Of a stretch of DNA of 64,000 nt, positions 4,632-64,000 are shown in pieces. The notes under the pieces were generated by a model that saw only the letters and a list, made by a program, of their open reading frames with translations, did no database searches and had not been told where the DNA came from. How positions within the stretch are numbered: position 1 is the first letter of the stretch; each line of letters starts with the position of its first letter. Position numbers and translations under genes: made by a program. The stretch comes from Thermodesulfobacteriota bacterium (GTDB lineage Bacteria; Desulfobacterota_D; UBA1144; Nemesobacterales; UBA2774), in NCBI GenBank assembly GCA_965216785.1, contig OZ244197.1:25120-89119 (forward strand), in the 5' to 3' direction.

Positions 4632-4636
4632 ATTAT

Positions 4637-4999: not shown

Positions 5000-5076
5000 T
5001 TTTTCTCCAGATAGAATGAATTAAAATGAGTTGACCGTACCGGTGGGTCTATGAATATATTTACTAAAGGATAACA

Positions 5077-5508: not shown

Positions 5509-5576
5509 TGATATTCCCCCGGTCTAATTTGGCTACTGCAGAAATTCTATCATCTGAGCACATTAAAATCCAGAAA

Positions 5577-6170: not shown

Positions 6171-6210
6171 TTTATTTCAGCTGCTATAGCTGGTTTTAAG
6201 CAGAGTATTA

Positions 6211-6741: not shown

Positions 6742-6848
6742 AATTTTACTCACATGATATCGGGCAAAAAGTAGCAAGTTGCGCACTTGACAAACAGCGC
6801 AGTAAAACTACTAATTTAATCTATAACTCCACAATCTACAACGACACT

Positions 6849-7754: not shown

Positions 7755-7908
7755 GGTTCTAATATATAGCAAGCTCTGTTAATCTATAATTTAATCTATT
7801 ACATGTCTGAACACATACTAGGTGTTAAACTATTTACATTAATTAAATCGAGAACAGCATTGTATCCAAACTTTACATAATTGGCTTAATAGAGTTAGGT
7901 AAGCACAA

Positions 7909-13102: not shown

Positions 13103-13876
13103 ATGATTAAAAGAGTAATACCCTATAAAGACCTCTTCATAGTCTACGTATGGAGAGAATATAATATAAGATACCGCCATTCCATCATGGGATTCCTGTG
13201 GGCTATTATTCAGCCCTTGAGCATGATGCTTCTCTTTACATTCGTTTTCACATACATATTGAAGATACAGACATCGGACTACCCGATAGCAATATTCTTT
13301 TACGCGGGACTCTTGCCTTGGACCTTTTTTTCTTCTTCAGTGAATTATTCTGTTTCAAGCCTTTCTGACAACTTTGATATAATTACAAAGATTTATTTCC
13401 CCAGGGAAATACTTCCACTCTCTGGAATATCCGTGGCTTTTGTCGATTACCTCATAGCCTCGCTCATATTTATACCTATGCTTGTAATATATAAAATCCA
13501 AATCACATTAAATGTGCTCTGGATCATCCCTCTTTTCATTCTCCTATTTATATTTACAATATCGATGTCTCTTTTGCTATCGAGCTTAAATGTGTATTAC
13601 AGAGACGTAAAACTTGCAATTGGGTTTTTGATACAACTTTTATTCTTTGCTTCTCCGATTCTTTATTCAATTGATGACCTGAGCATCAAGCTTAAATTGA
13701 TACTATTGCTCAACCCTCTTACATTTATTATTGAAAATATGAGAAGATGCTTGATTGAGGGGCGAGGAGTGGTGTTGTGGCAGTTTTTAATAGCTGCATT
13801 ATTGGTATTAGCATTCTTTTATCTAGCACATAAATTTTTCATAAAAACAGAAAGGGATTTTGCAGATGTCATCTAA
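13103..13876 (+). CDS. wzm: ABC-2 type polysaccharide/O-antigen exporter permease
   Basis: 257 aa with six predicted TM segments and the ABC-2 signature region. Its end overlaps the following ATPase gene by 17 nt. Confidence 0.8.
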   Translation: MIKRVIPYKDLFIVYVWREYNIRYRHSIMGFLWAIIQPLSMMLLFTFVFTYILKIQTSDYPIAIFFYAGLLPWTFFSSSVNYSVSSLSDNFDIITKIYFPREILPLSGISVAFVDYLIASLIFIPMLVIYKIQITLNVLWIIPLFILLFIFTISMSLLLSSLNVYYRDVKLAIGFLIQLLFFASPILYSIDDLSIKLKLILLLNPLTFIIENMRRCLIEGRGVVLWQFLIAALLVLAFFYLAHKFFIKTERDFADVI

Positions 13877-14597
13877 CACAGTCATAGAGTTTCAAGACGT
13901 GTGGAAGAAATACTCCACACAGGACATTTTCCATAAATCCATAAGGGATGAGATCGCCAATATATTTTCCAAGACCGACAGAGAAAACCTCGGGCACGGA
14001 GAGTTTTGGGCTTTAAAGGGGATTAGTATGTCGATAAAAAGGGGTGAGTGCATAGGATTATACGGACCCAATGGTTCTGGAAAATCTACGATTTTAAAAC
14101 TGATAGCATCAGTCACTTTTCCAAACAGAGGAGAGGTTAAAGTGGGAGGCAGAATAGCCCCGTTAATATCTGTAGGTGCTGGCTTTCATCCTGATCTTAC
14201 AGGAAGAGAGAATATTTACACCAATGGAACTATAATTGGAATGACTATCAAAGAAGTAAGAGATAAAATAGAGGATATCGTTCAATTCTCGGATATCGAT
14301 GAGAAGTTTATTGATATGCCAGTTAAGAAATATTCAACCGGTATGAATGCGCGGCTTGGCTTTTCTATTGCAATTCACAGTAGTGCGGAGATAATATTAA
14401 TCGACGAAATACTCGCTGTTGGAGATGAAGCTTTTCAGAAAAAATGTCTAACTAAGATCGAAGAGCTAATTGAGAAAAAAAGAACCATAATTATCGTGTC
14501 TCATAATAAAGACAGGCTCCGAGAATTGACTCACAGAATATTATTTATTCAAACAGGTGAAATAATTGATTCAGAATACCAAGAAAAGGTACTATAA
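13860..14597 (+). CDS. wzt: ABC exporter ATP-binding protein (short Wzt lacking the C-terminal glycan-binding domain)
   Basis: Walker A GPNGSGKST, signature YSTGMNARLGF, Walker B IILIDEILAVGD. At 245 aa it has no carbohydrate-binding extension. Confidence 0.85.
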   Translation: MQMSSNTVIEFQDVWKKYSTQDIFHKSIRDEIANIFSKTDRENLGHGEFWALKGISMSIKRGECIGLYGPNGSGKSTILKLIASVTFPNRGEVKVGGRIAPLISVGAGFHPDLTGRENIYTNGTIIGMTIKEVRDKIEDIVQFSDIDEKFIDMPVKKYSTGMNARLGFSIAIHSSAEIILIDEILAVGDEAFQKKCLTKIEELIEKKRTIIIVSHNKDRLRELTHRILFIQTGEIIDSEYQEKVL

Positions 14598-14626
14598 TTT
14601 ATGTCATCACATTATTCAAAGAGGAT

Positions 14627-16054
14627 ATGATGGGATATAACCCAAAAGTAGCAATCGTAATAGTTACATGGAACAAAAAGAAGTATGTAGTAGATCTACT
14701 GAACTCACTAAAAGACATTAACTATAAAAACTATGAAATATTTGTAGTAGATAATGCGTCTACAGACGATACTTGCAAAGTAATAAAAGAAAAGTATCCA
14801 TATGTGGATTTAATAGAGAATGAGGAAAATCTTGGGGGAACCGGCGGATTTAACACTGGGATGAAGTACGTTCTTGAGAAGGGCGGCTATAAGTATATAT
14901 GGCTCTTGGATAACGATGCAGTGGTAGAGAAAGATACACTAATCGAGCTTGTTAAAGTTATGGAAAACGACAACGGCGTAGGTATTACAGGTTCTATAAT
15001 AATGGAACCTGACAAGGAAATGATAGTTGAGCTCGGAGCATATGTATCATGGTCTATTGGAACATGGAAGCCAAATATGCGGAATAACAGAATAAGCAAA
15101 ATGGAGCATCTCGAGAATGCAGAGGTCGATTATGTAGCTGCGTGCTCGTCTCTAGTACGTACTGAAGTTCTTGAAGAAATCGGAGTAATGGATGAAAGAT
15201 ATTTTATACATTGGGATGATATTGACCTCTCTCTGAGAGCCAAGGCTGCCGGTTATAAGGTAATGGCATCACCAAAGTCTAAAGCTTATCACGGGATCGA
15301 GGACAAACCCATTAACCCTCTAATGTCATATTATGACATTAGAAACGGGCTACTTACAATCACAAAACATCAAGACGGTTTAAGCAGGTTTATATATATA
15401 ATGAACATGCTGAGGGGAACGAGTAAGGGTATCGTATACTCTATGTTAAGCGGACTTCACAATACTTCTAAGCTCCTGATTCGTGGGCCTATAGATTTCA
15501 TAAGGGGCAAATTTTATAAAACTAATATTCAGGTGATCAAAAGTGAATATGATGACCCGAAAGTTAGAAAATATAAAATAGAAGATTTACCGCTCAATAA
15601 TAATTCTAAAGTGATAATTCAACCTAATGCAAGCTACGCAGTCATTAAAAATATGGTACAAGAACTAAGAGAACTATATCCCGACTGCCATATTAGCTTA
15701 CTGATACAGCAAGACAGACAAGAGCTTTTTAAAGGCCTTAAGATTGACCGTTTTATTACTTTTGAAGGATACAGACAATCAACTATACAAACTATTTCGG
15801 TACTCAACAAGATACTACAATCGAATTATGATATTTGCATCAGCCCAAGCCGTTCACTTCTTCCGTTCTCACATGCTGTAAAAAAATACTTCTTGTATGA
15901 TCATCAAAATGACTATTTTGTAAAGAGTAATGAAAATTTATTTGCATCCTGGAAGCTCTTCGTATCATTCTTTGCGGGGGAGTTACTAGCATTTATTCTT
16001 TTACCCTTCGTATATCTTAAGAGCTTTCAATATGAGACAGTAAAGAGCTCTTAA
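14627..16054 (+). CDS. Glycosyltransferase family 2 (rhamnosyltransferase-like) with ~230-aa C-terminal domain of unknown function
   Basis: N-terminal GT-A motifs: VIVTWNKK, FVVDNASTDDT, LLDNDAVV. The C-terminal half has no recognisable motif. Confidence 0.7.
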   Translation: MMGYNPKVAIVIVTWNKKKYVVDLLNSLKDINYKNYEIFVVDNASTDDTCKVIKEKYPYVDLIENEENLGGTGGFNTGMKYVLEKGGYKYIWLLDNDAVVEKDTLIELVKVMENDNGVGITGSIIMEPDKEMIVELGAYVSWSIGTWKPNMRNNRISKMEHLENAEVDYVAACSSLVRTEVLEEIGVMDERYFIHWDDIDLSLRAKAAGYKVMASPKSKAYHGIEDKPINPLMSYYDIRNGLLTITKHQDGLSRFIYIMNMLRGTSKGIVYSMLSGLHNTSKLLIRGPIDFIRGKFYKTNIQVIKSEYDDPKVRKYKIEDLPLNNNSKVIIQPNASYAVIKNMVQELRELYPDCHISLLIQQDRQELFKGLKIDRFITFEGYRQSTIQTISVLNKILQSNYDICISPSRSLLPFSHAVKKYFLYDHQNDYFVKSNENLFASWKLFVSFFAGELLAFILLPFVYLKSFQYETVKSS

Positions 16055-48066: not shown

Positions 48067-48258
48067 TGATAAGATTTTACAGTGACTTATGAATCTATTT
48101 CAAGTTTTGGAGCAGGGAAGTCTTAATCTATTGCTATGAAAAGATACACGAGTAGCTGTGTAATATTGCACAACTCTTGAGCTTTGGAGTCTCCTTTGTG
48201 CAAACACTGATTATCTAAGCTGCTGTGATTACAACAAATATTGAAATTTCATATAAGT

Positions 48259-48274
48259 GGCATATATATTGCAA
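48259..48274 (+). promoter_or_regulatory. Sigma-54 (-24/-12) promoter motif TGGCAT-N5-TTGCA
   Basis: gTGGCATatataTTGCAaat has correct GG-N10-GC spacing. It is intergenic, ~115 nt upstream of and co-oriented with the sigma-factor gene. Confidence 0.55.
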
Positions 48275-48387
48275 ATTTTAAGATAAAAACCGGATTAGGT
48301 AGGATGGCGGAGGATATTTACAGACTTAATAATTGTCCGCTCGGGGTTTATTCACACCAATTTATATCTAAATAAAGGAGAGTGACA

Positions 48388-49530
48388 ATGAAATATCAAG
48401 AAGCTCAGACAGCTCAGAACGAAAGCCCTTCCTTTAGTGATACATATGATAAATCCGCGGACAGTGTGGGCAATGAGAGGGAGCAGTTCTTCAATGTCCA
48501 AAATAGCGAAAGCGATTCGATAAAAGAAAACCACTCTGTACTGCGCCCACAGGAAAATAGAGCCCATACGGACGACCAATTCAGAATAATGAACGATTAC
48601 TTTAGTGATATAGCCAATGAACCCTTACTTACCCTGAGAGAAGAAATAGAGCTTCCGACAAAGATTAAAAAATGCGAATCTAAAGCAAAACAGATAGAGT
48701 CGTGGCTCGAATCAGAGGAGCAAAGCAAACAAAATGAGAGGGGCTGTCAATGCTTAATAAAAAACACTCAGAGATTACAAGCCTCACATAGAGCGTACAC
48801 AGAAAGATCCAAACAGCTTAAGAAGAGATTTGCTAACGCTAACCTGAGGCTGGTCATAAGTATAGCGAAGCGATACGTGAATCATGGCCTTCCTTTTCTA
48901 GACCTCATACAGGAAGGAAATATAGGGCTTATGAGGGCTATAGACCGATTTGATCATACAAAGGGATACAGATTCTCGACCTATGCTTCCTGGTGGATAT
49001 ACCAGTCTATTACAAGGGCGATATTGGTGCATAGAGGAGCAGTTAGGGTCCCCGTATACCTGCTTGAGGTAACGAACAGAGTCTACAGAACGAGATCAAT
49101 CCTACTTAAAGAAACCGGAAAGAACCCCACTTCTGAAGAGATAGCGGAGCAGTCCGGTGTGCCGATTAAGTATGTTAAGCGAATACTTAAAATTACAAAT
49201 GAATCAGTTAGCCTGGACTCGCCTATTGACGGTGAAAAGAGAACGCTCTACGATTTCATAGAGAACAGCGATTCGATTTCCCCTGACTATATTATCGTTG
49301 AGGATGAGCTCAAAAAAAGCATACGTCATTCCCTGTCGCTACTGAGCCCTAAAGAAGAAGAGGTACTTAGAATGCGGTTCGGAATAGACAGGAAAGATAC
49401 CGTGACACTGGATGACATAGGCAAAAAATTTCAACTTACGCGAGAACGAATCAGGCAGATTGAGAAAAAGGCTCTAAGGAAACTATCTGTTTGCAAGATG
49501 AGGGAAGCTCTTAAAAACTTCCGCACATAG
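48388..49530 (+). CDS. RNA polymerase sigma factor, sigma-70 family (group 2/RpoS-like size)
   Basis: Region 2 motifs [19 protein letters not shown] and [11 protein letters not shown], plus region 4 [30 protein letters not shown]. Start set at the ATG 7 nt after AAGGAGAG; the track uses an upstream GTG. Confidence 0.85.
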
Positions 49531-49706: not shown

Positions 49707-49722
49707 TGGTACGGAAATTGCT
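49707..49722 (+). promoter_or_regulatory. Weak sigma-54-like motif TGGTAC-N5-TTGCT
   Basis: cTGGTACggaaaTTGCTc has correct spacing, but C to T at -24 position 4. ~57 nt upstream of the small secreted protein gene. Confidence 0.3.
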
Positions 49723-49778
49723 CTAATCAATAATGCCGGCCATAGGTGGCAGGCAAATCAATCCAGGAGGGTTACATT

Positions 49779-50006
49779 ATGAGATTACTCACCTATTTGT
49801 TCGCGCTCATGCTGGTAATGGGCGTTTCATTCGGCGGGGCTTCAATTATCACGAGCCAGCCAGTTATGGCAGAAGAAGGCGAAACTGCAGGCGGCGAAAT
49901 GACAGATGAGGCCGCAGGCGATGACGAAGGCGCGGAAGCAGCTACAGATGAAACCGCTGAAGGCGAAATAGAAGGCGGCGAAATGGCTGATGATGCCGAG
50001 AAATAA
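49779..50006 (+). CDS. Small secreted acidic Glu/Gly/Ala-repeat protein
   Basis: Signal peptide MRLLTYLFALMLVMGVSFGGASI. The mature part is ~45 aa with repeated GGEM[TA]D[ED]A. AGGAGG lies 8 nt upstream. A GC hairpin terminator follows. Confidence 0.5.
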   Translation: MRLLTYLFALMLVMGVSFGGASIITSQPVMAEEGETAGGEMTDEAAGDDEGAEAATDETAEGEIEGGEMADDAEK

Positions 50007-52361: not shown

Positions 52362-53318
52362 CTATTTCTTATTTACCTGTAGAAACCCGATATTTTGGTG
52401 CTTATCAAAAGACATAATGATATTATCAATATCATATTTGGGAATATCGCTCGTACAATCTAACAATTCAAACTGATCACGACCAATGAGTTCCCAATCC
52501 ATAAAGCTTTCCATATAACCTATTTCTCTCATTTCTGGTAGAACATTTGTAATTAATAGCACACCTTGCGGCGATAGTTTCTGAAATAGTTTGTGAGTAA
52601 GCTTTTGTGCTGTTCTTTGTTTCAAATAATCATATAACCCTGAAGCATAAATTAAGTCATATCCTGAATGCTTGAAATTGTTTCTCAAAATATCGACAAC
52701 AGAGACAGCACTAGCCTGGACACTACTACCAGAGTAATTTCTGTTCACGTAGTTAACACTTTCTATGTCCTGGTCTATTGCAGTGTATTCTTCTATTTCA
52801 TCATTTCTAAAAGATTCAGATAGTTCAATCTCTCTTAGATGACCGCACCCTATCGACAGAACTTTTGTCTTATCGGTAGCACGGGCAACGCTGTCTATGA
52901 CTCTAGCAATATATTGCCTCCGAAGGCGTACGGAATCACATGCAGTCGTATTGAAAGTGTATTCTCGGATTTCGTTACCGAGTTCGTTAACACCATCAAA
53001 ATTCACACTTGGATGTCCATATATCATATCCAATAGGTATGCATCTCCAGCATATCCCCTGGGCTTATTGTAAGCCCTCTCTGTTATAGGGTCTTGATAT
53101 ATAAATTCTTTTATAGGATGGTCCATTAGATAATTCCCTACGATATATTTCCACTCACCTACAGAGCAATTTAGCTTTAGATGTCTTAACCCGGCGTAAA
53201 AATTATCTAGCGCCTCAGTAATTTTACTATTATTTATTTGATTGTATGCTTCCTCTAGTAGACAAGACGTAAAGTCATCACTATATATTTTCCGGGCTAA
53301 ATTATTTTGTGTCATCAT
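52362..53318 (-). CDS. Class I SAM-dependent methyltransferase with ~130-aa N-terminal extension
   Basis: Motif I VLSIGCGHLRE, acidic DQD, and post-I LIYASGLYDYL. Confidence 0.6.
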   Translation of the reverse strand: MMTQNNLARKIYSDDFTSCLLEEAYNQINNSKITEALDNFYAGLRHLKLNCSVGEWKYIVGNYLMDHPIKEFIYQDPITERAYNKPRGYAGDAYLLDMIYGHPSVNFDGVNELGNEIREYTFNTTACDSVRLRRQYIARVIDSVARATDKTKVLSIGCGHLREIELSESFRNDEIEEYTAIDQDIESVNYVNRNYSGSSVQASAVSVVDILRNNFKHSGYDLIYASGLYDYLKQRTAQKLTHKLFQKLSPQGVLLITNVLPEMREIGYMESFMDWELIGRDQFELLDCTSDIPKYDIDNIIMSFDKHQNIGFLQVNKK

Positions 53319-53533: not shown

Positions 53534-53570
53534 GACTAAGACCTCCTTTTTCATTATGTGACTTTATAAA

Positions 53571-53586
53571 TGCAACCGGTATGCCA
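53571..53586 (-). promoter_or_regulatory. Sigma-54 promoter motif TGGCAT-N5-TTGCA (reads leftward)
   Basis: The reverse complement of aaTGCAAccggtATGCCAaat is atTTGGCATaccggTTGCAtt. Confidence 0.55.
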
Positions 53587-53639
53587 AATATATAACTCTC
53601 CTTCATCATTAAGTTTTCTAAATTTCAATCTTGTCGGCA

Positions 53640-53656
53640 TGTAAACTACGTTTACA
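53640..53656. promoter_or_regulatory. Perfect inverted repeat TGTAAAC-tac-GTTTACA between divergent sigma-54 promoters (candidate enhancer/UAS)
   Basis: 7-bp arms. A further GTAAAC half-site lies 20 nt downstream (53661-53666). Confidence 0.45.
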
Positions 53657-53730
53657 TATCGTAAACTCCGTATACATATCAGTGATTCACACACACTAAC
53701 TTATTTAATGATTAAAGAGGCTTACGTTTT

Positions 53731-53746
53731 TGGCATTCTGATTGCT
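53731..53746 (+). promoter_or_regulatory. Sigma-54 promoter motif TGGCAT-N5-TTGCT (reads rightward)
   Basis: ttTGGCATtctgaTTGCTc. Predicted TSS ~25 nt before the AAGGAGG RBS of the collagen-like gene. Confidence 0.55.
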
Positions 53747-53781
53747 CTTTAAGGATATAGAACTTTAAGGAGGTAGTTAAA

Positions 53782-54576
53782 ATGAGGATATTGATATTTC
53801 TGAGTGTTTTATTTAGCGGTTTATACTTTTCACAGGATGTAACTGCCGAGGGTATAGTATTCTGCCAGAGTAAAATCTTTAAAGTCGTAAGATACAGGGG
53901 CGGCGAGCCCGGAAGCTGTAAACGATTTGAAAATGAGATTGTTATAACTACCGAAATCGGTGAGGCTGGACCTCCCGGGCCTCAGGGACTAGCTGGACCT
54001 GCAGGACCTCAAGGTGATCCTGGACCGGATGGACCAGCCGGACCTGAGGGGCCACAAGGACCGGCAGGACCTATGGGAGATGTCGGACCGGAGGGCCCAC
54101 CAGGTGATATAGACCAAGGTCTTTTGGATGATCTTCAGGAACAAATTGATATTCTAGCAAGTAAGGCATGTGGAGATGGAGAATTAGATATAATTTTTGG
54201 TGAAGAGTGTGATGATGGAAACGAATTAGACCAAGACAGTTGTTCATCTGATTGCTTAATCACAGGCCCAAGTGGTCCTTTTTGCGGTAATAGAACAATT
54301 GAAGATCCTGAAGTATGTGATGCCGATATAATTCTGACTAGTTGTATAGACTTGGGATTTGTAACAGGAGACCTAAGATGTTCGGACGACTGCCTATCTT
54401 TTGATACATCAGGTTGTCTTGACTCAGTATGCGGCAATAACAACCAGGAAAGTGGTGAAGTTTGTGATGGAACAGATTTGGTTGGTATAGATTGTACTGA
54501 CTTTGGATTCACAGGAGGTTCCTTAGCATGCGGTTTTGACTGTGTTAGTTTTAATACATCTAATTGTTCTAATTGA
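53782..54576 (+). CDS. Secreted collagen-like (G-X-Y) / Myxococcus-type cysteine-rich repeat protein
   Basis: Signal peptide. About 17 uninterrupted GXY triplets ([50 protein letters not shown]). Four cysteine-rich repeats of the CG[DN]G..E.GE.CDDGN / C.D.GF..G.L.C..DC.SF.TS.C type. Confidence 0.75.
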
Positions 54577-54664: not shown

Positions 54665-57600
54665 TTGAAAGGAGTATGTTCTTTGGAGTGTTCAGCTTGT
54701 AAATCTGCAATCACATCAGGTGAAAAATTCTGCGGCAATTGCGGAAAGAAAGTAGGGGTTGAGTGTCAGAGCTGCGGCAATGAAAATCCCCTTAAGAACA
54801 AGTTCTGCTCAGAATGCGGCAGCAAACTGAGTAACGGAACTGTATCTAAACCTGAGAGCTTCTCAAAAGATATTCCTGTACAGCTTGCCAGAAAGGTGAT
54901 AGAAGAAAAAGCACATCTTGAAGGCGAGCGTAAACAGATAACGGTCCTATTTGCGGACATATCAAATTTTACAGCATTATCCGAGAAGCTCGATCCGGAG
55001 GACGTAAAGAACCTAGTGGACGGATGCGCCAAGCTTATCATTCAGGATATTTACCACTATGAGGGTACGGTAGACAAATTTACAGGCGATGGTGTTATAG
55101 CCCTATTCGGCGCTCCAATTTCACTAGAAGATCATGCAGCCCGTGCATTGAGCTCAGCGATTAAAATCCAGGAATCTGTGAAGGAATACAGCCGTAAAAT
55201 AAAGAGCGAATTTGGGTATGAATTAGAAATGAGGATCGGGATAAATACAGGGCTCGTTGTGGTGGGGAGTATAGGGAACGACCTTAGCATGGATTATACG
55301 GCTATGGGCGATACGATTAACCTCACTTCGAGACTCGAATCGTTTGCTGAACCCGGCACAATTCTGGTCAGCGAAAATACTCAAAGGTTAGTGAGTGACA
55401 GATTCAGTTTCGGTCCGGGCGAAGAATACCGAGTAAAAGGAAAAAAATCGGCCGTAACAGCTTACAAGGTATTAGATACGAAAGAGGATGTAACGCTTCG
55501 CGACTTTCAGACTGAAGGTAGACTGACCAGATTCGTCGGGAGAAAAAGAGAGATAAATACCCTCACTGATAGAATCGACCTGGCAAAGGAAAGCCAGGGG
55601 CAGATTATCTCCGTTATAGGGGAGGCTGGACTTGGGAAAACCCGCCTTATCCATGAGCTTAGAGACTTATTAGGAAATGAAGACCTTAGATGGGTAGAAG
55701 GCAAGAGCCTGTCTTATGGCAAGTCGATACCATATTTCCCTATCATTAACCTGCTGAAAAGTTTTTTTAGGATCGAGTCTGATTATAGCGAGCGGGTAAC
55801 TAAAAATAAAATCGAGAAGGAAATCAGAGAGATTGACTCAGATTTATTGTGGACTCTTCCATTCTTATACAGCCTGTTATCAATCGGCCCCTCCGATAAG
55901 AGTATTGAGCAAATGCACGAACGGGAGATAAGGAGGAAGAGCTACGAGGCTGTTAATTCCATCTTCCAGAGACAGAGCAGAAAGCAGCCGCTACTTTTAG
56001 TAGTCGAAAACCTCCACTGGGTGGACAGCGCTTCAGAGGAGCTTATAAATCACATTGTGCACAATATCGCCAGAAGCAGAATTATAATACTGGTCTCAAC
56101 CCGTCCGGGACATTTACATCTGTTTTCCGATAAATCCTACTATACTCAGATAATTCTAAGCCCCCTTTCAGACGCCGATTGCGAATCTATGATCAAGCAG
56201 ATCCTGAAAACTCAAGACGTGTCGCGGGACTTACAGGATTTAATTTTGAACAAATGCGAAGGAAACCCATTGTATCTGGAAGAGGTCGTTAAGGATCTAT
56301 TAGAGCAGGGCGCTATAAAGGTATCCATGGGAAAAAGCTCTCTCAGTAAAAAGGGCCATGAACTGGCAGTCCCGGGGACGATACTTAGTATTATAATGAG
56401 CCGGGTGGACAGATTAGATGAGAACCTTAAAAATACGCTCCAGTGCGCCTCCGTGATAGGGAGAGAGTTTTCGTTCCCTCTACTGAACGGCATTACAGGC
56501 GGCGGCATAGAATTACATGAAGACCTTGAAAAACTGAAAGAACTTGAGCTGATATACGACAAAGGACCCTCACCTGAGCCTGAATACTTGTTTAAGCACG
56601 CGCTCACTCAGGAAGCCACCTACAACAGCCTTCTCTTCGGTAGAAGAAAAGACCTTCACCTATCAATCGGGAAGCTACTCGAGAACACACATAAAAACAG
56701 GCTCGAAGAATATTATGAGACCCTGGCTTACCACTTCTATCACGGTGAAGACGTAGAGAAGTCTTTAGAATATATGACTCTAGCTGGAGACAAGGCTTTC
56801 AGGCTCCACTCTACTAGAGAGGCCATGGAGTTCTACCAAAAAGCTATTGAGCTCATTATTAAGCAGCCTGAAACCGAGGAAAATAAATCAAAAAGAGCAA
56901 ACCTTACCATAAAGCTGACAAGGGTGCTCAGATTTTTCGAATCCCCTAAAAATATACTAGAAATGCTCAAAAGCATTGAGGATATTGCTGATACACTCGA
57001 AGACTATAATCTAAGGTCCAGAATAATGTCTCTGATCGGTTTATTTACTGTGCTATTGGCTAAGAATCAGGAAGCCGGAATCCCCTATTGTGAGAAGAGT
57101 ATCGAGATCGCGAGCACTTTGAAAGATGAAAAAATCACATCACTGGCGTTCTATAGCCTCACAATGGCCTACTATTTTACAAGAGGAAAAAACGAAGGAG
57201 CCGACCTTTTCAAAAAAGCTTACAAAATTTCAAATAATGCCGGAGATTATTTTGAGGCGAGTCATATTCTGCTGCTCCATGGTATTTCACTTTGGCATTG
57301 GGGAGACTATGAGAAAGCCCAACAATACATAAAGAATTCTCGGGACTACGCTGAAAAAAGAAAAGCTCCTACAATGGCTGCACACAGTTATTGCGCACAT
57401 GGGGGTTACGGGGTGTTTTATGGAAACTTCACACAAAACTACGTCGACGACTGTAAAAAAGCGATGCAAATGTTTAAAGAATTAGACGACGTGTACTACT
57501 ATCTTATAGTTTCAGGCTGTTACTGGTACGGAGTTTACAAAACGACAGGGAATAAAGAAGCGGTTAAAAATCTCGAGGAGACAATAAAGAAAAAAGAAGA

Positions 57601-58036
57601 AAATGATATGTGGATATGGCAGCCGATGCTTTATTCATATTTAGCTGAAGCATACTGTGATTTAGGTATTGAAAGGGAAGCGCTCGCATCATGTAAAAAA
57701 TCGATAGAAATAGCAGAGGGAGCCGGGAACAAATTAGAAGCAGGCAGAGGCAGGATCGCCTTAGGAAAATATTATATAGATAAACAAAATCGAGACTTGA
57801 AAAAGGCGGAAGTGAGTTTTAAAGAAAGTGTTGAAAACTTTGATGTTATTGAAGCAAATTCGGGCCTTTGTATGAGTTATTTCAATCTCGGTGCACTTTA
57901 TAAAGAACAGAAAAACTATAAAGAAGCAAAAGCTTATCTTTCTAAAACTATACCGATGGCTAAAAAAGCGGGGTTATGGTGGTATTTACGGAGCTCAGAA
58001 CTCCTCTTAAACGATATAAAGGAAAGCACATCATAA
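54665..58036 (+). CDS. Double zinc-ribbon + class III adenylate/guanylate cyclase + STAND (AAA_16) NTPase + TPR signal-transduction protein
   Basis: N-terminal CxxC x4. Cyclase core ITVLFADISNFT...FTGDGVIALFGAP. P-loop VIGEAGLGKTRL, Walker B LLLVVENLHWVD and the GNPLYLEE motif, then multiple TPR-like helices. The start may instead be the TTG at 54683 (SD AAGGAG 8 nt upstream). Confidence 0.8.
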   Translation: MKGVCSLECSACKSAITSGEKFCGNCGKKVGVECQSCGNENPLKNKFCSECGSKLSNGTVSKPESFSKDIPVQLARKVIEEKAHLEGERKQITVLFADISNFTALSEKLDPEDVKNLVDGCAKLIIQDIYHYEGTVDKFTGDGVIALFGAPISLEDHAARALSSAIKIQESVKEYSRKIKSEFGYELEMRIGINTGLVVVGSIGNDLSMDYTAMGDTINLTSRLESFAEPGTILVSENTQRLVSDRFSFGPGEEYRVKGKKSAVTAYKVLDTKEDVTLRDFQTEGRLTRFVGRKREINTLTDRIDLAKESQGQIISVIGEAGLGKTRLIHELRDLLGNEDLRWVEGKSLSYGKSIPYFPIINLLKSFFRIESDYSERVTKNKIEKEIREIDSDLLWTLPFLYSLLSIGPSDKSIEQMHEREIRRKSYEAVNSIFQRQSRKQPLLLVVENLHWVDSASEELINHIVHNIARSRIIILVSTRPGHLHLFSDKSYYTQIILSPLSDADCESMIKQILKTQDVSRDLQDLILNKCEGNPLYLEEVVKDLLEQGAIKVSMGKSSLSKKGHELAVPGTILSIIMSRVDRLDENLKNTLQCASVIGREFSFPLLNGITGGGIELHEDLEKLKELELIYDKGPSPEPEYLFKHALTQEATYNSLLFGRRKDLHLSIGKLLENTHKNRLEEYYETLAYHFYHGEDVEKSLEYMTLAGDKAFRLHSTREAMEFYQKAIELIIKQPETEENKSKRANLTIKLTRVLRFFESPKNILEMLKSIEDIADTLEDYNLRSRIMSLIGLFTVLLAKNQEAGIPYCEKSIEIASTLKDEKITSLAFYSLTMAYYFTRGKNEGADLFKKAYKISNNAGDYFEASHILLLHGISLWHWGDYEKAQQYIKNSRDYAEKRKAPTMAAHSYCAHGGYGVFYGNFTQNYVDDCKKAMQMFKELDDVYYYLIVSGCYWYGVYKTTGNKEAVKNLEETIKKKEENDMWIWQPMLYSYLAEAYCDLGIEREALASCKKSIEIAEGAGNKLEAGRGRIALGKYYIDKQNRDLKKAEVSFKESVENFDVIEANSGLCMSYFNLGALYKEQKNYKEAKAYLSKTIPMAKKAGLWWYLRSSELLLNDIKESTS

Positions 58037-58068: not shown

Positions 58069-58818
58069 ATGGCATTTGAAGAAATAGAGAATAAAGTTGT
58101 TCTAATAACAGGGGGCTCGGAAGGTATAGGATTTGGGATTGCAAGAACTTTCGTCAATGCCGGTGCTAGAGTAGCTATCACAGGACGAAATATAAATAAA
58201 TTGGACAAAGCCAAAGAGCTTCTTGGAAATGATGTATTTTCGATTAATGCAGATGTTGCTCAAACCGAAAATTCCGCTGCCACTATTGAGAGAGTTGTCA
58301 GCGAATTTGGGAGATTGGACATACTAATTAACAACGCCGGAGAGGGGAATCAAAAACCGTTATCTAAATGCGATATTAACGACTATGACTTTGTTTTTAA
58401 TACGAACGTAAGGGGGTTATTCGCTCTGACTCAGGCCGCAACCCCTGAGCTTAAAAAAACAAGTGGGAATATCATAATAATAGCTTCGTCACTCGGTTTA
58501 AGACCGGCGCCCATGTACGGGGTCTATTCGGCTTCCAAAGCAGCTGTTATCATGTTCGCTCAGATGTGGGCTAAGGAACTTGCTCCGGACGTAAGAGTCA
58601 ATTCGATAAGCCCCGGCGGTGTAGATACACCGTTATGGGACAAGCTGGTTGGTAAGGAAAAAAAGGAAGATGTTCTCAGCTTTGTCAAAGAACGTCATCT
58701 GGTAAAAAAGCTCGGCAGCCCGGATGAGATCGGAGGAGCGGCTCTTTACCTTGCTACTGAAGACTGGGTAACCGGAAGTAATTTGGTGATAGACGGCGGT
58801 CTTTTCTATTCGATATGA
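58069..58818 (+). CDS. Short-chain dehydrogenase/reductase
   Basis: TGGSEGIGFGIA Rossmann motif, NNAG, and catalytic S...YSASKAAV. Confidence 0.85.
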   Translation: MAFEEIENKVVLITGGSEGIGFGIARTFVNAGARVAITGRNINKLDKAKELLGNDVFSINADVAQTENSAATIERVVSEFGRLDILINNAGEGNQKPLSKCDINDYDFVFNTNVRGLFALTQAATPELKKTSGNIIIIASSLGLRPAPMYGVYSASKAAVIMFAQMWAKELAPDVRVNSISPGGVDTPLWDKLVGKEKKEDVLSFVKERHLVKKLGSPDEIGGAALYLATEDWVTGSNLVIDGGLFYSI

Positions 58819-58867: not shown

Positions 58868-58886
58868 CTGTAAACATCCATTACAG
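58868..58886. promoter_or_regulatory. Inverted repeat CTGTAAAC-N5-TTACAG (shares the TGTAAAC half-site with 53640-53656)
   Basis: ~150 nt upstream of the sigma-54 motif at 59036. Confidence 0.35.
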
Positions 58887-59035
58887 TTAAAATAACTATT
58901 TTCTGTTGTTAAGTTCCTTAAATCTCCCAAATTTTAAGTATATATTCAAATTCCAAGATTCACCCTCCTGGCAATCTCTGTAAGCAGGGTTGACACTTCT
59001 GTCAAATTATTCAATGTTTTCAGATGTTTAGAATT

Positions 59036-59051
59036 TGGCACACTGCTTGCA
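59036..59051 (+). promoter_or_regulatory. Sigma-54 promoter, perfect consensus TGGCAC-N5-TTGCA
   Basis: tTGGCACactgcTTGCAaaa. The GGAGG RBS and the ATG of the YdhR-like gene follow within 55 nt. Confidence 0.65.
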
Positions 59052-59088
59052 AAAATATTAAATCAAAAATCACTTGGAGGTGATCGAT

Positions 59089-59430
59089 ATGATAGTAGTT
59101 CAGATTATTAACTTTAACTTAAGCGGTATGAGTGAGACGGAGTATGAGCAGACCTGTGATAATTTAGCCGGCTCATTCGCTGAGGTTCCAGGACTTCTGG
59201 CCAAATACTGGCTATCTGACCGGGCCAATAACAGTTACGGCGGGGTGTATTTATGGGAAGACCGTACGTCGCTTGAGCGTTTTACCCGCTCAGAGCTTTT
59301 TAATAGTGTTGCCACTCATCCCAATCTGGTAAACATCTCTTCACAGGTATTCGATGTGCTGGAGGGCCCTACCCGAGTTACAAGGGGCTTTGACGCTGTA
59401 AGCGCAATTGAAAAAGCCCGTGCGGTTTAA
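59089..59430 (+). CDS. YdhR-like putative monooxygenase (Dabb/ABM fold)
   Basis: VVQIINFNLSGMSETEYEQ...GLLAKYWLSD..NNSYGGVYLWEDRTSLERF..S.LF resembles YdhR (PF08803). Based on recall only. Confidence 0.5.
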   Translation: MIVVQIINFNLSGMSETEYEQTCDNLAGSFAEVPGLLAKYWLSDRANNSYGGVYLWEDRTSLERFTRSELFNSVATHPNLVNISSQVFDVLEGPTRVTRGFDAVSAIEKARAV

Positions 59431-59457: not shown

Positions 59458-59733
59458 ATGAAATTTATAGCGGTCCATCCACTAAATAGTCCTATAAGAG
59501 AGGACCAGATTACCGACGCAGCCAGAGCGTGCAGGGCGGAGAACAGTAACAACGCCTGCTGGATAGACAGCTGGACCCAGCTTAACGACGAAGGAGAGAT
59601 CACAGTTATCTATTGTCAGTACGACGCAAAGGACGCAGAATCCGTAGCAGATCTTCTTAAAAAGGGAGCACCAGACCTTCCGGTCGAGGGTATATACCTT
59701 ATGGGTAAGCTCGAAGCAGAAAATTACAGGTAA
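59458..59733 (+). CDS. DUF4242 (SCO4226-like, putative nickel-binding) protein, copy 1
   Basis: MKFIAVHPLN...CWIDSW..DEGEITVIYCQYDAKDAESV...EGIYLM. Confidence 0.6.
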   Translation: MKFIAVHPLNSPIREDQITDAARACRAENSNNACWIDSWTQLNDEGEITVIYCQYDAKDAESVADLLKKGAPDLPVEGIYLMGKLEAENYR

Positions 59734-59742
59734 AAACAGTTC

Positions 59743-59779
59743 GGGCGTTAGGTACGTATTGTATCCAACGCCCTTATAC
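59743..59779 (+). terminator. Possible terminator hairpin
   Basis: gggcgtt-N17-aacgccc followed by ttatacc. Confidence 0.35.
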
Positions 59780-59796: not shown

Positions 59797-59826
59797 TTGA
59801 ATTAAGAAAATCTAAAGTGATATAAT
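59797..59826 (+). promoter_or_regulatory. Sigma-70-like promoter TTGAAT-N18-TATAAT
   Basis: About 19 nt before the GGGGAGG RBS of the EBP-STAND gene. Confidence 0.45.
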
Positions 59827-59844: not shown

Positions 59845-62505
59845 ATGCAGCGTTCCGCGGTAGAAAAAAATAAGATCATCGGCTCAAGCGCAAAGCTTTC
59901 TGAGGTCGTGGACTTAATTTTGAAAATCGCCGATACACCGACCAACATACTTATCACTGGTGAAAGCGGCACAGGAAAGGAGCTTGCCGCAAGTCTACTG
60001 CATGAAAAGAGCAGCCGCTCAGATAAACCTTTTATGGACATCAATTGTGCGGCTATACCCGAGACGCTTCTGGAGAGTGAGCTCTTCGGTATTGAAAAAG
60101 GGGTCGCGACGGGGGTTGAGAGAAGAGAGGGTAAAATCGAGCTATCCGCAGGGGGGAGCCTTTTCCTTGACGAAATAGGCGACATGAGCCTCGGCGCTCA
60201 GGCAAAGCTGCTCAGGGTCCTTCAGGAAAGGAGCCTTAAAAGAGTAGGCGGCAAAAGCGACATCGCCGTTGACCTGAGGATAATCGCAGCCACGAACAAA
60301 GACCTTCTTTCGGAGATAAAAAAGGGGAAATTCAGAGAGGATCTTTATTACAGGATCAACGAAGTACATATTAAGATGCCTTCCCTGAGGGAAATACGTG
60401 AGGATATACCCAGTTTGTCCGAGCATTTTCTTCATTCACTCTGTCATGAGCTCAATATGAATACACTCCGGTTTAGTGATTCAGTCCTGGACCGACTATC
60501 GAGCTACAGCTGGCCCGGAAACATCAGAGAGCTTAAAAACGAGGTTAAAAGGGCAGCGCTCCTGGCCGATGGCCATATAATAGAAGAAAGAGATTTATCT
60601 CCAGATATTTTGAATTTCTTTAAAAACAAGGATGCCAGTCAAGGTCTTGTAAGTGAAGCAACTTCGCTACCTCGAGCAGTAGAAGAGCTCGAAATCCAGA
60701 TGATAAAGCAAGCCCTAAAATCATGTCAGGGAAACAGGGTAAAGGCCTCTCAGATGCTTGGAATATCAAGGCAGGGACTAATAAAAAAGATAAGCAGATA
60801 CAGGATAGATCAGGGTAGCTCTCAGAAAAAGAAAATTTCAGACCGATTGCTCAAGTCAAGCAAAAGATCGTTTGTCGGAAGAGCAAATGAGATTAAAGAA
60901 ATAAAGGATCTAATCAAGTCCAAGAAGTCTACTTACTATGTCTTATTTATTCACGGCATAGGAGGGATTGGGAAGACAAGTATGGTTAAGGAACTTTTAA
61001 ATTCCTTGGACGCTAAGGTTAGTACAATTTACCTTGATTGTAGAGACATAGAGCCGACGGAGAACGGTTTTCTAACATCGCTGGGTAATGAACTTAATCT
61101 CAAGAGCACCAGAATTACAGTAGAGCGTGTTTTAAAGAGTTTGGAGAAGAGAAAGGAAAGAACACTACTGGTACTCGACACCTATGAGACTTTCGGACTT
61201 ATGGATACCTGGCTCAGAAAGACTTTTATACCATCTCTACCTGAGAATTTTCTTACAATAATCATCGGAAGACACCCGCCAAATAATTCATGGTTTACAA
61301 GCTCAGGCCTTGGGACTCTTATTAAGAGTATTGAGCTTGAGGAGCTTTCTTATGAGGACGCGATCAACTTCTTAATACTCCGTGGGCTTACGTCAGAAGA
61401 AGCAGAAAAGACCTATTCATTCGCCCGGGGGCACCCGATGGCTCTTGAGCTAGCAGCAAATTCGGTATCATCAAAACCCACTCGAGACATTTCATACAAA
61501 TCATTCCCTAACATTATTCATCAGCTGACGCAGGATTTCCTGCTGGGTCTAGATAAGAAGACCAGAAAGACGCTCGAGAGCCTCTCTTTAGTGAGGCGCT
61601 ATGACGACACCCTACTGAAACACTTACTAAACGAAGACTACGAAGAAGGTATCTTTGACAATCTCTTAGAGCTCCCATTCGTCAGCCTAACAGGAGAAGG
61701 ATGCTTGATACACGATATAGTAAGGGAAACTATAGCTCGTGAGCTATCACTCCGTGATCCGAAGAGGTATAAGGATTCGAAAAAAGCCGCATGGGTATAT
61801 CTGAATGAACAATCGCTTGCGAAGCACGGTGAATCACTCTGGCAAGCTACTGCCGATTTGCTATACACTATAGAAAACCCGGTTGTAAGGGATGCTTTCT
61901 TTCCTAAAGGTGCAATGGGTTATGTCGTCGAGCCACTATCTCATGAGGATAAAGAGCATGTAATTGATATTGTGCGTGAGTCCGAATCGGGTGAACCTGC
62001 CGATATAATTGAGAACTGGCTCACATATTATCCGGGCAGTTTCAGTGTTGTTAAAGATATAACCGGTGAAGTTGAGGCGTTCTTTATTTTATGCGAGCCT
62101 AATGAGATCGATAGGAGCCCTTTATCTGAGGATAAAATACTCGACGTTTGGTTTAAGCACTTGGAATCTAATCCTCTAGATTCCACAGACAAAGCGCTAT
62201 TTCTAAGGAGGTGGCTCAGTAGAGGACATGGTGAAGGTCTTTGTCCTGCACAAGGAGCTTCATGGCTCGACGTTAAGAGAAACTACATGGAGCTTAGACC
62301 TAAATTAAAAAGGCTTTATACAACACTGACTGATTTAGAAAACTATAAGCCTGTCGTATTACCGTTAGGTTTTTCTCTTTTAGATAGTTCAGAGATTGAG
62401 CTCGAAGAAACAACTTACTATTCCGCCATTATTGATTTCGGACCGGACAGCGTCGACGGATGGCTCAGAAAACTTATCGGTCTTGAGCTTGGTATTGGTC
62501 AGTAA
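59845..62505 (+). CDS. Fusion: sigma-54 enhancer-binding AAA+ core + Fis-type HTH + NB-ARC/STAND NTPase + C-terminal domain of unknown function
   Basis: aa 10-245 are an EBP AAA+ core (GESGTGKE, ESELFGIEKG-GVATGV, GGSLFLDEIGDMS, SWPGNIRELKN). HTH at ~aa 285-315. P-loop FVGRANEIKEI...IHGIGGIGKTSM, Walker B LLVLDTYE and GHPMAL at aa 330-560. It has no N-terminal receiver, GAF or PAS domain. Confidence 0.8.
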   Translation: MQRSAVEKNKIIGSSAKLSEVVDLILKIADTPTNILITGESGTGKELAASLLHEKSSRSDKPFMDINCAAIPETLLESELFGIEKGVATGVERREGKIELSAGGSLFLDEIGDMSLGAQAKLLRVLQERSLKRVGGKSDIAVDLRIIAATNKDLLSEIKKGKFREDLYYRINEVHIKMPSLREIREDIPSLSEHFLHSLCHELNMNTLRFSDSVLDRLSSYSWPGNIRELKNEVKRAALLADGHIIEERDLSPDILNFFKNKDASQGLVSEATSLPRAVEELEIQMIKQALKSCQGNRVKASQMLGISRQGLIKKISRYRIDQGSSQKKKISDRLLKSSKRSFVGRANEIKEIKDLIKSKKSTYYVLFIHGIGGIGKTSMVKELLNSLDAKVSTIYLDCRDIEPTENGFLTSLGNELNLKSTRITVERVLKSLEKRKERTLLVLDTYETFGLMDTWLRKTFIPSLPENFLTIIIGRHPPNNSWFTSSGLGTLIKSIELEELSYEDAINFLILRGLTSEEAEKTYSFARGHPMALELAANSVSSKPTRDISYKSFPNIIHQLTQDFLLGLDKKTRKTLESLSLVRRYDDTLLKHLLNEDYEEGIFDNLLELPFVSLTGEGCLIHDIVRETIARELSLRDPKRYKDSKKAAWVYLNEQSLAKHGESLWQATADLLYTIENPVVRDAFFPKGAMGYVVEPLSHEDKEHVIDIVRESESGEPADIIENWLTYYPGSFSVVKDITGEVEAFFILCEPNEIDRSPLSEDKILDVWFKHLESNPLDSTDKALFLRRWLSRGHGEGLCPAQGASWLDVKRNYMELRPKLKRLYTTLTDLENYKPVVLPLGFSLLDSSEIELEETTYYSAIIDFGPDSVDGWLRKLIGLELGIGQ

Positions 62506-62587: not shown

Positions 62588-62869
62588 CTACCTGTAATCT
62601 TCACCATATACCTCGGCTATCTGAAAGATACCATCAGATGGCGGCAGCTCTGGTACGGATGATGAGAGGGTCGCGTGAATGGAATTAACATCTTTACTGT
62701 CCCACTCACAAAAAACTCTCGACACTTTTCCGTCATCAGTCAACTGAAGCCAGCTCCTGACCCAGTAAGCATCAGTGCTGAGGTTGGCCTTGCACTTTTG
62801 TGCAATCGGCACAACGTCCTCGCCGTTTACTGGTGGGTTAACCGGGTGAATAGCTATATATCTAGGCAT
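62588..62869 (-). CDS. DUF4242 (SCO4226-like) protein, copy 2
   Basis: MPRYIAIHPVN...YWVRSW..DDGKVSRVFCEWDSKDVNSI...DGIFQIAEV. Paralogous to 59458-59733. Confidence 0.6.
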   Translation of the reverse strand: MPRYIAIHPVNPPVNGEDVVPIAQKCKANLSTDAYWVRSWLQLTDDGKVSRVFCEWDSKDVNSIHATLSSSVPELPPSDGIFQIAEVYGEDYR

Positions 62870-62911: not shown

Positions 62912-63967
62912 TCAATACCGAGACATAATATTCTCATGAAAACTATTCATAGCTTTTATAGGATCAGGCACAGGGGCTATCATTATCTGATTTATACCCT
63001 GTGACTCCATCCTTTTAATCGTGTCGATGATCTCGCTGCTGGTTCCAACGAGAACTGATGCTTCTATCATCTCCGGCGTGAGCACATCGTTAAATTCCTC
63101 GTTCCAGAAAAAATAGTTACTGTAGTAGGCAAGGTGTCTTCTTTCGGGGTTGTCCAGGTCTGAAGGATACGCGTTTGTGAATTTCATGACCCCGTCCCTT
63201 AAGCTCTCAGGAAGCGGCTCGCCCGGAGTTGTACCTGTGTTTTTCCCGTGGTTTTCAAGTGACTTCGCGAGTATATTCAGACATACAGAGACCATAGGTC
63301 CCAGCTGATGTCTGACTGATTCAGTTTCAAGAGATTCGCCTTCATCCAGAATATAAAAAGCGCTAAGAACCATGGTATATATGTCCTCAGGGTTTCTTCC
63401 TGATTTCTTCGCGCCCTTTCTGATTCGCTCCATACAATAATCTATGTACTCCTCGTCTATCGCCCCAAGAAGCATTACACCGTCCGCAAGCTCTCCGGCA
63501 AGCTCAAGAGTCTTTGGTCCGCTTCCGGCCATAAATATTGGTATTTCGTCTTTGGTATTTATAAAGCCCATATCTGGACTCAGGAATTTAACAGGTCTCT
63601 TCCTCTCCTGAGATAAATACTTATCCGGGCCTTCACTGTATTCCGCCTCTTCACCCTTGAGCATTTTTCTATATATGCCAACGTCATTCCGAAGCTCATC
63701 AAGCTTAGCTATCGGCATACCCCAGGCCCGTCTCGCGGTGTTACCGGTACCGATCCCGAGAACACACCTGCCGGGCGCAAGCTCGTTTAGAGTAGCCATG
63801 GCTCTTGCGGTAACTGGAGTCATCCTGGCGCGCGGGCATGTGACGCCAGGGCCAAGCTTTATTTTTTTTGTATTGGTGGCGCAAAGGGTTAACGTTTCAA
63901 AAACATCGCTCCCTATGCTGTCATACGGCATAAAATGTGTGAACCCCTTATCTTCGCCATGGGCCAC
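62912..63967 (-). CDS. Luciferase-like monooxygenase (LLM-class flavin/F420-dependent oxidoreductase)
   Basis: TIM-barrel LLM family with an LGIGTGN loop. 351 aa. Confidence 0.75.
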   Translation of the reverse strand: MAHGEDKGFTHFMPYDSIGSDVFETLTLCATNTKKIKLGPGVTCPRARMTPVTARAMATLNELAPGRCVLGIGTGNTARRAWGMPIAKLDELRNDVGIYRKMLKGEEAEYSEGPDKYLSQERKRPVKFLSPDMGFINTKDEIPIFMAGSGPKTLELAGELADGVMLLGAIDEEYIDYCMERIRKGAKKSGRNPEDIYTMVLSAFYILDEGESLETESVRHQLGPMVSVCLNILAKSLENHGKNTGTTPGEPLPESLRDGVMKFTNAYPSDLDNPERRHLAYYSNYFFWNEEFNDVLTPEMIEASVLVGTSSEIIDTIKRMESQGINQIMIAPVPDPIKAMNSFHENIMSRY

Positions 63968-64000
63968 CCATTGCCATGAATGTATATGTGAGGGAAAATG

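Follow-up and report, generated by a model that had tools for sequence, protein, structure and literature searches.

How can one stretch of intergenic DNA serve two sigma-54 promoters that point away from each other, and which protein would act through it? The question is raised by a segment of 64,000 nucleotides from a Thermodesulfobacteriota bacterium (contig OZ244197.1), hereafter called the window, where two opposed -24/-12 elements flank a perfect palindrome, TGTAAAC-N3-GTTTACA. A preliminary description had proposed that the palindrome is a shared enhancer for a dimeric activator of the helix-turn-helix (HTH) type. Our analysis leads to a similar answer with additional parts: two 17-bp dyads, located at 53640-53676, in all probability form a bidirectional upstream activating sequence (UAS), and the protein encoded 6 kb away, at 59845-62505, is its most likely binder, as judged from sequence comparison. 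This protein is a bacterial enhancer-binding protein (bEBP), and it is the best candidate because its gene is linked to the sites. The promoters and sites concerned are listed below, with scores in a position weight matrix (PWM) given in bits.

53571-53586, minus strand: left promoter, sigma-54 -24/-12 element TGGCATACCGGTTGCA, identified by pattern match; predicted start ~53560
53640-53656: putative UAS site 1, perfect dyad TGTAAAC-tac-GTTTACA (TGTAAACtacGTTTACA, TGTAAACTACGTTTACA); 23.4 bits, top score in the 64 kb
53660-53676: putative UAS site 2, dyad CGTAAAC-tcc-GTATACA (CGTAAACtccGTATACA); 16.8 bits
53731-53746, plus strand: right promoter, sigma-54 -24/-12 element TGGCATTCTGATTGCT, identified by pattern match; predicted start ~53757
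58869-58885: putative distal UAS of the promoter of the ydhR-like operon, TGTAAAC-atc-CATTACA (TGTAAACatcCATTACA); 17.0 bits
58979-58995: putative proximal UAS of the 59036 promoter, TGTAAGC-agg-GTTGACA (TGTAAGCaggGTTGACA); 16.1 bits
59036-59051, plus strand: sigma-54 promoter TGGCACACTGCTTGCA of the operon formed by a ydhR-like gene (59074-59430) and an SCO4226-like gene (59458-59733); predicted start ~59062

The promoters are read directly from the sequence. Exact matches to TGGCAYNNNNNTTGCW (TGGCAY-N5-TTGCW) occur four times in the window, at 48258(+), 53571(-), 53731(+) and 59036(+), while 0.10 would be expected; none of 100 shuffled sequences contained at least four. A relaxed pattern yielded one further promoter-like match, at 49707(+). 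The GG and GC doublets lie 10 bp apart in TGGCAC-N5-TTGCW, and a GGAGG ribosome-binding site with its start codon is found 25-40 bp 3' of the sigma-54 elements. Re-reading of the sequence placed the opposed elements and the consensus promoter at 59036 where the preliminary description had them; the gap between the two back-to-back elements is 144 bp. A search of the intergenic region 53555-53781 for sigma-70-like promoters yielded none.

The sites were examined by searching the window for the palindrome at up to three mismatches. The perfect form occurs once, and matches with two mismatches or fewer (n = 4) are all located upstream of three sigma-54 promoters. Each dyad is 17 bp long with 7-bp arms, and there are two per promoter, spaced either 20 bp or 108-110 bp. 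What had been described as a further GTAAAC half-site beside the palindrome is a complete second dyad, CGTAAACtccGTATACA, recovered by the mismatch search. Similarly, the imperfect relative reported upstream of the 59036 promoter, CTGTAAACATCCATTACAG at 58868-58886, is indeed present, although its distance to the -24 element is 159 bp instead of ~150 bp and its proximal companion at 58979-58995 had been missed.

Distances were taken between the centre of each site and base 1 of the -24 element. Site 1 is centred 62 bp from the left promoter (~-88 relative to its predicted start) and 83 bp from the right promoter (~-109); for site 2, the corresponding values are 82 bp (~-108) and 63 bp (~-89). 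At the 59036 promoter, the distal site is centred 159 bp and the proximal site 49 bp 5' of the -24 element (~-185 and ~-75). None of the sites overlaps a -24/-12 element, and all lie in the range, roughly 70-200 bp upstream, where an upstream activating sequence is to be expected. Sites 1 and 2 are 20 bp apart, centre to centre. The palindrome had been placed midway between the promoters; the exact midpoint (53658.5) is in fact held by the pair of dyads (centre, 53658) and not by the palindrome alone. Owing to the symmetry of each dyad and the central position of the pair, the two promoters face an identical 62/82 module, and a single oligomer could serve either.

To estimate how exceptional these sites are, a PWM trained only on sites outside the window was used to score ~64,000 positions. 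The four sites occupied the top four ranks (23.4, 17.0, 16.8 and 16.1 bits), and the next best position reached 13.7 bits. Markov-shuffled windows gave ~0.03 hits of 16.1 bits or more per 64 kb. A hand calculation goes in the same direction: the 230-bp zones upstream of the five promoters make up less than 2% of the window, and two independent site clusters both fall inside them (chance, ~3e-4). Upstream of the other sigma-54-like promoters of the window, 48258 and 49707, no site of 8 bits or more was detected.

Conservation was studied in related loci, most of which were found via homologues of the activator: L001 (82% identity, syntenic), L002 (which encodes the same 889-aa activator as L001), L003 (74%), L128 (76%), L129 (52%), L130 (83%) and L131 (76%); L084-L088 come from a metagenome scan. 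In eight related metagenomic loci with activators 49-83% identical to that of the window, the arms of the dyads are kept while the spacers vary. The orthologues of site 1 are TGTGAACtttGTTTACA in L001/L084 and TGTAAATcacGTTTACA in L130, and those of site 2 are CGTAAACgctGTATACA and TGTTAACactGTGTACA, respectively; the sequence that joins the two tandem dyads reads att in L001/L084 and tat in L130. The divergent promoters are also conserved (left promoter, L001 3020-3035 and L130 9030-9045; right promoter, L001 3180-3195 and L130 9190-9205), and the same gap of 144 bp separates them in L001/L084 and L130.

A comparable picture is found at the ydhR promoter. Loci whose activator is 74-83% identical carry a distal and a proximal dyad with conserved arms and varying 3-bp spacers, and the split pair is kept in L001, L002, L003, L085, L128 and L131, with the distal site at 158-159 bp and the proximal site at 49-50 bp. 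Alignment A3 (8 sequences with a mean identity of 64%) and alignment A4 show islands of conservation, as would be expected of a functional UAS; at the ydhR promoter, these islands coincide exactly with both dyads, with an AATGAT box, and with the -24/-12 element and ribosome-binding site of the gene. Altogether, the geometry falls into two classes. In the first, seen at eight promoters that belong to four different operons, the sites are at 62/82 bp (63/83 on the opposite strand); in the second, seen at six ydhR promoters, they are at 49-50/158-159 bp. The more divergent L129 (52% identity) has a distal-type site, TGTTAACctaGTTGACA, at its ydhR promoter, plus a proximal dyad with an N4 spacer, TGTAAACatttGTTTACA.

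In L130, the module of divergent promoters and tandem dyads is present, and its right-hand promoter directly drives ydhR and SCO4226, adjoining the activator. In L001, two extra sigma-54 promoters with tandem dyads are found, at positions that would correspond to DNA past the end of the window, one upstream of a luciferase-like operon and the other upstream of a gene for a 178-aa secreted protein; the L001 promoter at 13806-13821 has its dyads at 62/82 bp. By synteny with L001, a fourth promoter with its enhancer should lie just past position 64000, upstream of the luciferase-like gene 62912-63967.

The element that accompanies the dyads at all promoters of the cluster is an AATGAT(N9-10)TTA box, fixed 23-24 bp 5' of the -24 element and thus between it and the dyads, which is not present at 48258 or 49707. 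Its copies in the window, identified by promoter-anchored comparison in the divergent pair, are as follows:

53605-53610, minus strand: AATGAT box, 24 bp upstream of the left -24 element
53707-53712, plus strand: AATGAT box, 24 bp upstream of the right -24 element
59013-59018: AATGAT box, 23-24 bp upstream of the -24 element of the 59036 promoter

The box may belong to the binding site of an architectural protein similar to IHF, as the IHF consensus WATCAR-N4-TTR is matched with 0-2 mismatches at 9 of the 15 cluster promoters. The divergent pair of the window fits this consensus poorly, and a bending protein there is for this reason only a possibility.

Which protein binds the dyads? The gene core conserved across loci consists of the ydhR-like gene, usually followed by the SCO4226-like gene, plus the activator, and nothing else is common to all; in L003, L128 and L131, the genes around this core are housekeeping genes. 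The activator is the sole regulator gene always linked to the sites, as would be expected for the cognate bEBP, and it is also the only bEBP gene in the window:

59845-62505, plus strand: presumed binder, bEBP of 886 aa; AAA+ domain at residues 11-176, lid, HTH_8 at 279-319, STAND/AAA_16 from ~343 and a GNAT-like C-terminal domain

The protein carries the Sigma54_activat and HTH_8 domains, the latter a Fis-type HTH. Within each dyad, 10 bp separate the centres of the half-sites, a spacing that fits a dimer with a Fis-type HTH, and with 20 bp between the tandem dyads two dimers would face roughly the same side of the helix. The proposal of a shared enhancer for a dimeric HTH activator gains support from the conserved arms, the fixed distances, the linkage to the activator gene and the L130 module.

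As regards binding, oligomerisation, looping and signal, we infer the following scenario. Activator dimers would occupy each dyad through the Fis-type HTH, the half-site centres being one helical turn apart, and two dimers 20 bp apart on roughly the same DNA face would nucleate the active AAA+ oligomer. One bound oligomer could then loop to RNA polymerase-sigma-54 at either promoter, which would be opened at the expense of ATP; the conserved, AT-rich AATGAT...TTA box may aid looping. To activate the ydhR-like operon from the 59036 promoter, this protein most probably acts through the split pair 58869/58979. The activator itself, made from its own sigma-70 promoter, would be switched on when its C-terminal module, composed of a MalT-like STAND NTPase and a GNAT-like domain, binds a ligand and multimerises.

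Several observations weigh against this scenario. The enhancer is proposed on the basis of sequence comparison. Neither rpoN nor an RpoN box is present in the 64-kb window. The distant fused orthologues L086 and L088 lack recognisable dyads, and in L086 only a -24/-12-like TGGCAC-N5-TTGGA was seen. The sigma-54-contacting loop of the activator reads GVATGV, and therefore lacks the Phe of GAFTGA, a residue that mutagenesis of PspF and NtrC makes important for activation. The PWM ranking is partly circular, as the training sites were found by similarity to the palindrome of the window itself; for this reason, the independent evidence lies in the fixed positions of the sites in non-homologous promoters and in arms that stay conserved as the spacers change. 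Last, the recognition helix, (S/T)RQGL(I/F)KK, hardly differs in the GAF-type and cyclase-fused paralogues that adjoin similar dyads, and consequently the binder cannot be assigned from sequence alone.

The latter observation opens the way to an alternative in which the dyads are indeed a sigma-54 enhancer but are bound by a paralogous activator of the GVATGV clade, or jointly with it, while the 59845 protein controls the ydhR promoter only. A suitable candidate exists in L001: a bEBP with GAF-AAA+-HTH architecture (14115-15650, minus strand) sits between two further promoters with 62/82 tandem dyads, and its recognition helix, TRQGLFKKMKRY, is close to that of the 59845 protein, SRQGLIKKISRY. 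In L132, a GAF-type GVATGV bEBP is likewise found beside three tandem (C/T)RTAAAC-N3-GTYKAC dyads. We consider this alternative unlikely, however: in L130, where the tandem module sits directly on the ydhR/STAND-bEBP unit, the preceding 10 kb contain no GAF-bEBP, L003, L128 and L131 have dyads with only the STAND-bEBP nearby, and the window contains no second bEBP gene. Furthermore, none of the best 120 homologues of the L001 GAF-bEBP (down to 49% identity) comes from the source contig, even though the database holds other proteins of that genome. It is also conceivable that the 17-bp dyads, which are a generic kind of site for a dimeric transcription factor, are operators for a regulator other than a bEBP, such as a repressor or an anti-activator acting between the promoters. 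Such a role is very improbable, as the sites lie at ~-75 to -185 from the predicted starts, clear of the -24/-12 elements, and keep their exact distances across unrelated operons; in addition, no other regulator gene is conserved alongside them.

A further explanation, that the palindrome is a product of chance, a repeat or a structural element (REP/MITE-like, cruciform or RNA hairpin) without regulatory role, draws on the fact that short AT-rich palindromes are common at 44% GC and that three-mismatch matches do occur elsewhere in the window. Hits of the strength observed are nevertheless expected at the rate of ~0.03 per 64 kb given above, the dyads keep their arms but not their spacers, and eight loci share the fixed geometry. 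An RNA structure is a poor fit too: the region is not transcribed, because it lies between divergent promoters, and Rfam gave no match in it nor any RNA element in the intergenic regions at large. The comparative data effectively refute this explanation, and a bidirectional enhancer, presumably bound by the 59845 protein, is the reading that we retain.

Dyads similar to those of the window are also present beside other members of the clade. L132 has tandem dyads at 2440-2525 and 8086-8143, beside a bEBP-cyclase-AAA_16-TPR protein and a GAF-bEBP, both with GVATGV, and its cyclase-fused member adjoins CGTAAAG-N3/4-CTTKACG dyads. Because GAF-type and cyclase-fused members sit beside similar dyads, the motif family GTAAA(C/G)-N3-(G/C)TTTAC seems to be a property of the whole GVATGV clade, which suggests a clade-wide recognition code.

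The architecture of the presumed binder is unusual. The canonical domain order of bEBPs is not followed, since the AAA+ domain starts at residue 11 and the HTH is followed by ~560 residues made of a STAND NTPase and a GNAT-like domain; in the domain search, ~400 residues lay beyond the STAND/AAA_16 match. The loop is not canonical either: GVATGV occupies residues 86-91 (DNA 60100-60117) and aligns with the GAFTGA of ZraR (1ojl), the best sequence match in the PDB. This variant is shared without exception by the 17 clade members aligned, among them GAF-type proteins from metagenome-assembled genomes of Thermodesulfobacteriota and Acidobacteria. Many GAF-type GVATGV bEBPs, the closest GAF-type relatives among them, carry the JGI label 'Nif-specific regulatory protein'. 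In the literature, we found the variant reported once, for DVUA0100 of Desulfovibrio vulgaris (PMC4641369).

The model of the C-terminal module has a moderate overall confidence (predicted local distance difference test, pLDDT, 65.8), which rises to 80-90 in the last domain. In a fold search with this model, the NTPase matched MalT (8bob) and the NB-ARC of plant NLR proteins, and the last domain matched GNAT acetyltransferases. The resemblance to MalT and NB-ARC, read from the model, suggests multimerisation driven by ligand and ATP. In other phyla, the module (residues ~343-886; DNA 60870-62505) is found in proteins of its own, with a class III cyclase joined to its C-terminus in the Dadabacteria loci L004, L089 and L099, and with an OmpR-type winged helix in Bradyrhizobium (L012) and Chloroflexia (L008). 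Genome and metagenome scans with the STAND module mostly retrieved stand-alone STAND proteins and not fused activators, and of their yield only L084-L088 were of use here. Given its separate and fused occurrences, the STAND/GNAT-like module would appear to be a portable sensor and oligomerisation switch with three different outputs. A fusion of a STAND NTPase to a bEBP was not described in the literature searched for STAND NTPases together with sigma-54, and a search on the motif and sigma-54 gave nothing relevant.

A more ambitious interpretation is that the dyads dock a new class of sigma-54 activator, in which AAA+ assembly is placed under a MalT-like STAND NTPase and a GNAT-like ligand domain located after the HTH instead of under an N-terminal domain, contact with sigma-54 is made through a GVATGV loop devoid of the canonical Phe, the sensor is portable and the 62/82 module can fire either promoter. 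We put it forward tentatively, as a possibility that falls somewhat short of being probable.

Two further elements lie between the ydhR-like operon and the activator gene:

59743-59773, plus strand: GC-rich hairpin after the SCO4226-like gene, -18.1 kcal/mol, z-score -1.64
59797-59826, plus strand: sigma-70-type promoter of the activator gene, TTGAAT-N18-(TG)aTATAAT (extended -10), nearly invariant in orthologues

With a near-invariant sigma-70 promoter of its own, the activator is probably produced constitutively, with regulation acting on its activity. In 6 orthologues, the stem of the hairpin persists although its sequence differs. Without a T-run, the hairpin is not a terminator of the canonical kind; the sigma-54 transcript probably ends there, and the hairpin may alternatively serve as a processing site or stabiliser.

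The genes under the promoters can be described as follows. The left promoter faces a small gene with a probable start at ATG 53533, after a GGAGG ribosome-binding site, which encodes ~60 aa without Pfam match; a gene for an S-adenosylmethionine-dependent (SAM) methyltransferase, 52362-53318, comes after it. The right promoter faces a gene for a secreted protein (53782-54576) with a collagen triple-helix repeat and myxo-type Cys-rich repeats. Next, 54665-58036 encodes a Zn-ribbon/class III cyclase/AAA_16/TPR protein, and an SDR gene follows at 58069-58818. The 54665-58036 protein resembles the 'TOMM kinase/cyclase fusion' model with 313 bits (the cut-off being 706), and with it the putative enhancer would control another signalling protein of the STAND type, besides the activator.

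Small SCO4226-like (DUF4242) proteins recur beside activators of the GVATGV clade: besides 59458-59733(+), the window has another at 62588-62869(-), and L132 has one at 7205-7471. They are candidates for partner or effector proteins of these regulators. In L129, ydhR is located downstream of the activator, beside AhpC-, TrxR-like and Lactamase_B/rhodanese genes; in the order of the locus (4194-7946), the ydhR-like gene is followed by genes for a 1-Cys peroxiredoxin (AhpC), a thioredoxin-reductase-like flavoprotein and a Lactamase_B/rhodanese protein. These neighbours hint at a regulon that responds to redox or sulfur stress.

Two promoters of the window stand apart from the cluster. The consensus sigma-54 promoter TGGCATATATATTGCA, at 48258-48273(+), is located ~110 bp 5' of a gene for a sigma factor of the sigma-70 family (48382-49530), an arrangement that suggests a cascade from sigma-54 to the sigma-70-family factor. 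As it has no TGTAAAC-type dyad upstream, a different activator is implied there. A weaker -24/-12 match, TGGTACGGAAATTGCT, is found at 49707-49722(+), directly 5' of the gene 49746-50006, whose product has 86 aa, an N-terminus resembling a signal peptide and an extremely acidic tail rich in Glu, Asp, Gly and Ala.

The outcome of this analysis is a regulon map for an uncultured lineage, which relatives of its RecG and of the STAND module place near Candidatus Dadabacteria or Thermodesulfobacteriota, with one DNA motif, two fixed geometries, three operons in the window and a candidate activator. The sites provide a handle for asking whether a GVATGV loop works with sigma-54, and a route to the study of an enhancer-binding protein controlled by a STAND domain.

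How does this arrangement compare with known sigma-54 systems? NtrC at glnAp2 and ZraR at zraP/zraSR use 17-bp dyads for dimers with a Fis-type HTH, and in their enhancers two adjacent sites ~100 bp upstream nucleate the oligomer. The zraP and zraSR genes are divergent sigma-54 units with shared sites, and FhlA at hyc/hyp provides another example of a shared enhancer of divergent sigma-54 promoters. The differences are that the NtrC motif is TGCACC-N5-GGTGCA, and that NtrC and ZraR are response regulators with a canonical GAFTGA. The UAS of NifA, TGT-N10-ACA, is also located ~100 bp upstream of the promoter, and the window shares with it this position and the outer TGT...ACA. We rejected an assignment to NifA, however, as the spacing is N11 here, with a conserved inner AAAC/GTTT, no nif genes are present, and the score in the NCBIfam model of NifA is 333, below the cut-off of 529.

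A parallel in overall layout is OrpR (DVU2106) of Desulfovibrio vulgaris, which, according to PMC3897727 (and Fievet 2011 as cited there), co-activates the divergent sigma-54 operons orp1 and orp2 via palindromic sites in the shared intergenic region; its gene has its own sigma-70 promoter, and IHF sites are located between the activator sites and the promoters. In both systems we thus find one bEBP, palindromic intergenic sites, divergent sigma-54 promoters and a sigma-70 promoter for the regulator gene. The DNA motif is different, however; OrpR has an N-terminal sensor, while here the STAND module is C-terminal, and IHF is a weak sequence hint in the window. PexR of Myxococcus xanthus is a GAF-type bEBP that binds tandem dyads upstream of the sigma-54 promoters of the redox-stress genes ahpC and katB; its motif is CACCG-N6-CGGTG, and GAFTGA is highlighted in its AAA+ domain (PMC12754779). 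A likeness can be seen in L129, the 52% orthologue, where ahpC is located downstream of ydhR. The PexR type of site was rejected, since CACCG-N6-CGGTG belongs to another site family. Outside the bEBPs, the nucleotide-binding oligomerisation domain of MalT (PDB 8bob) resembles the C-terminal module of the 59845 protein in the fold search, made with a model of pLDDT 65.8; the output is a LuxR-type HTH in MalT and a sigma-54 AAA+ domain here, and the sensor is SUPR/TPR in one case and GNAT-like in the other.

The regulator of type III secretion in D. vulgaris, DVUA0100, shows several similarities. It has the GVATGV loop, and it is associated with divergent sigma-54 operons that share an upstream region and with a predicted site, GCCAAC-N3-GTTGGC; from regulon prediction, the variant loop was judged compatible with sigma-54 activation (PMC4641369). 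Both regulators thus combine the GVATGV loop with a dyad that has an AAC-N3-GTT core and a 3-bp spacer. They differ in the outer bases of the dyad (GCC there, TGTA here), in the HTH (ITREGLRKKLLRF there, ISRQGLIKKISRY here) and in the presence, in DVUA0100, of a long N-terminal region instead of a C-terminal STAND module, together with a type III secretion regulon. A shared enhancer between divergent sigma-54 promoters is therefore already established, textbook knowledge, and the interest of the system described here lies mainly in the non-canonical, STAND-fused activator to which it points.

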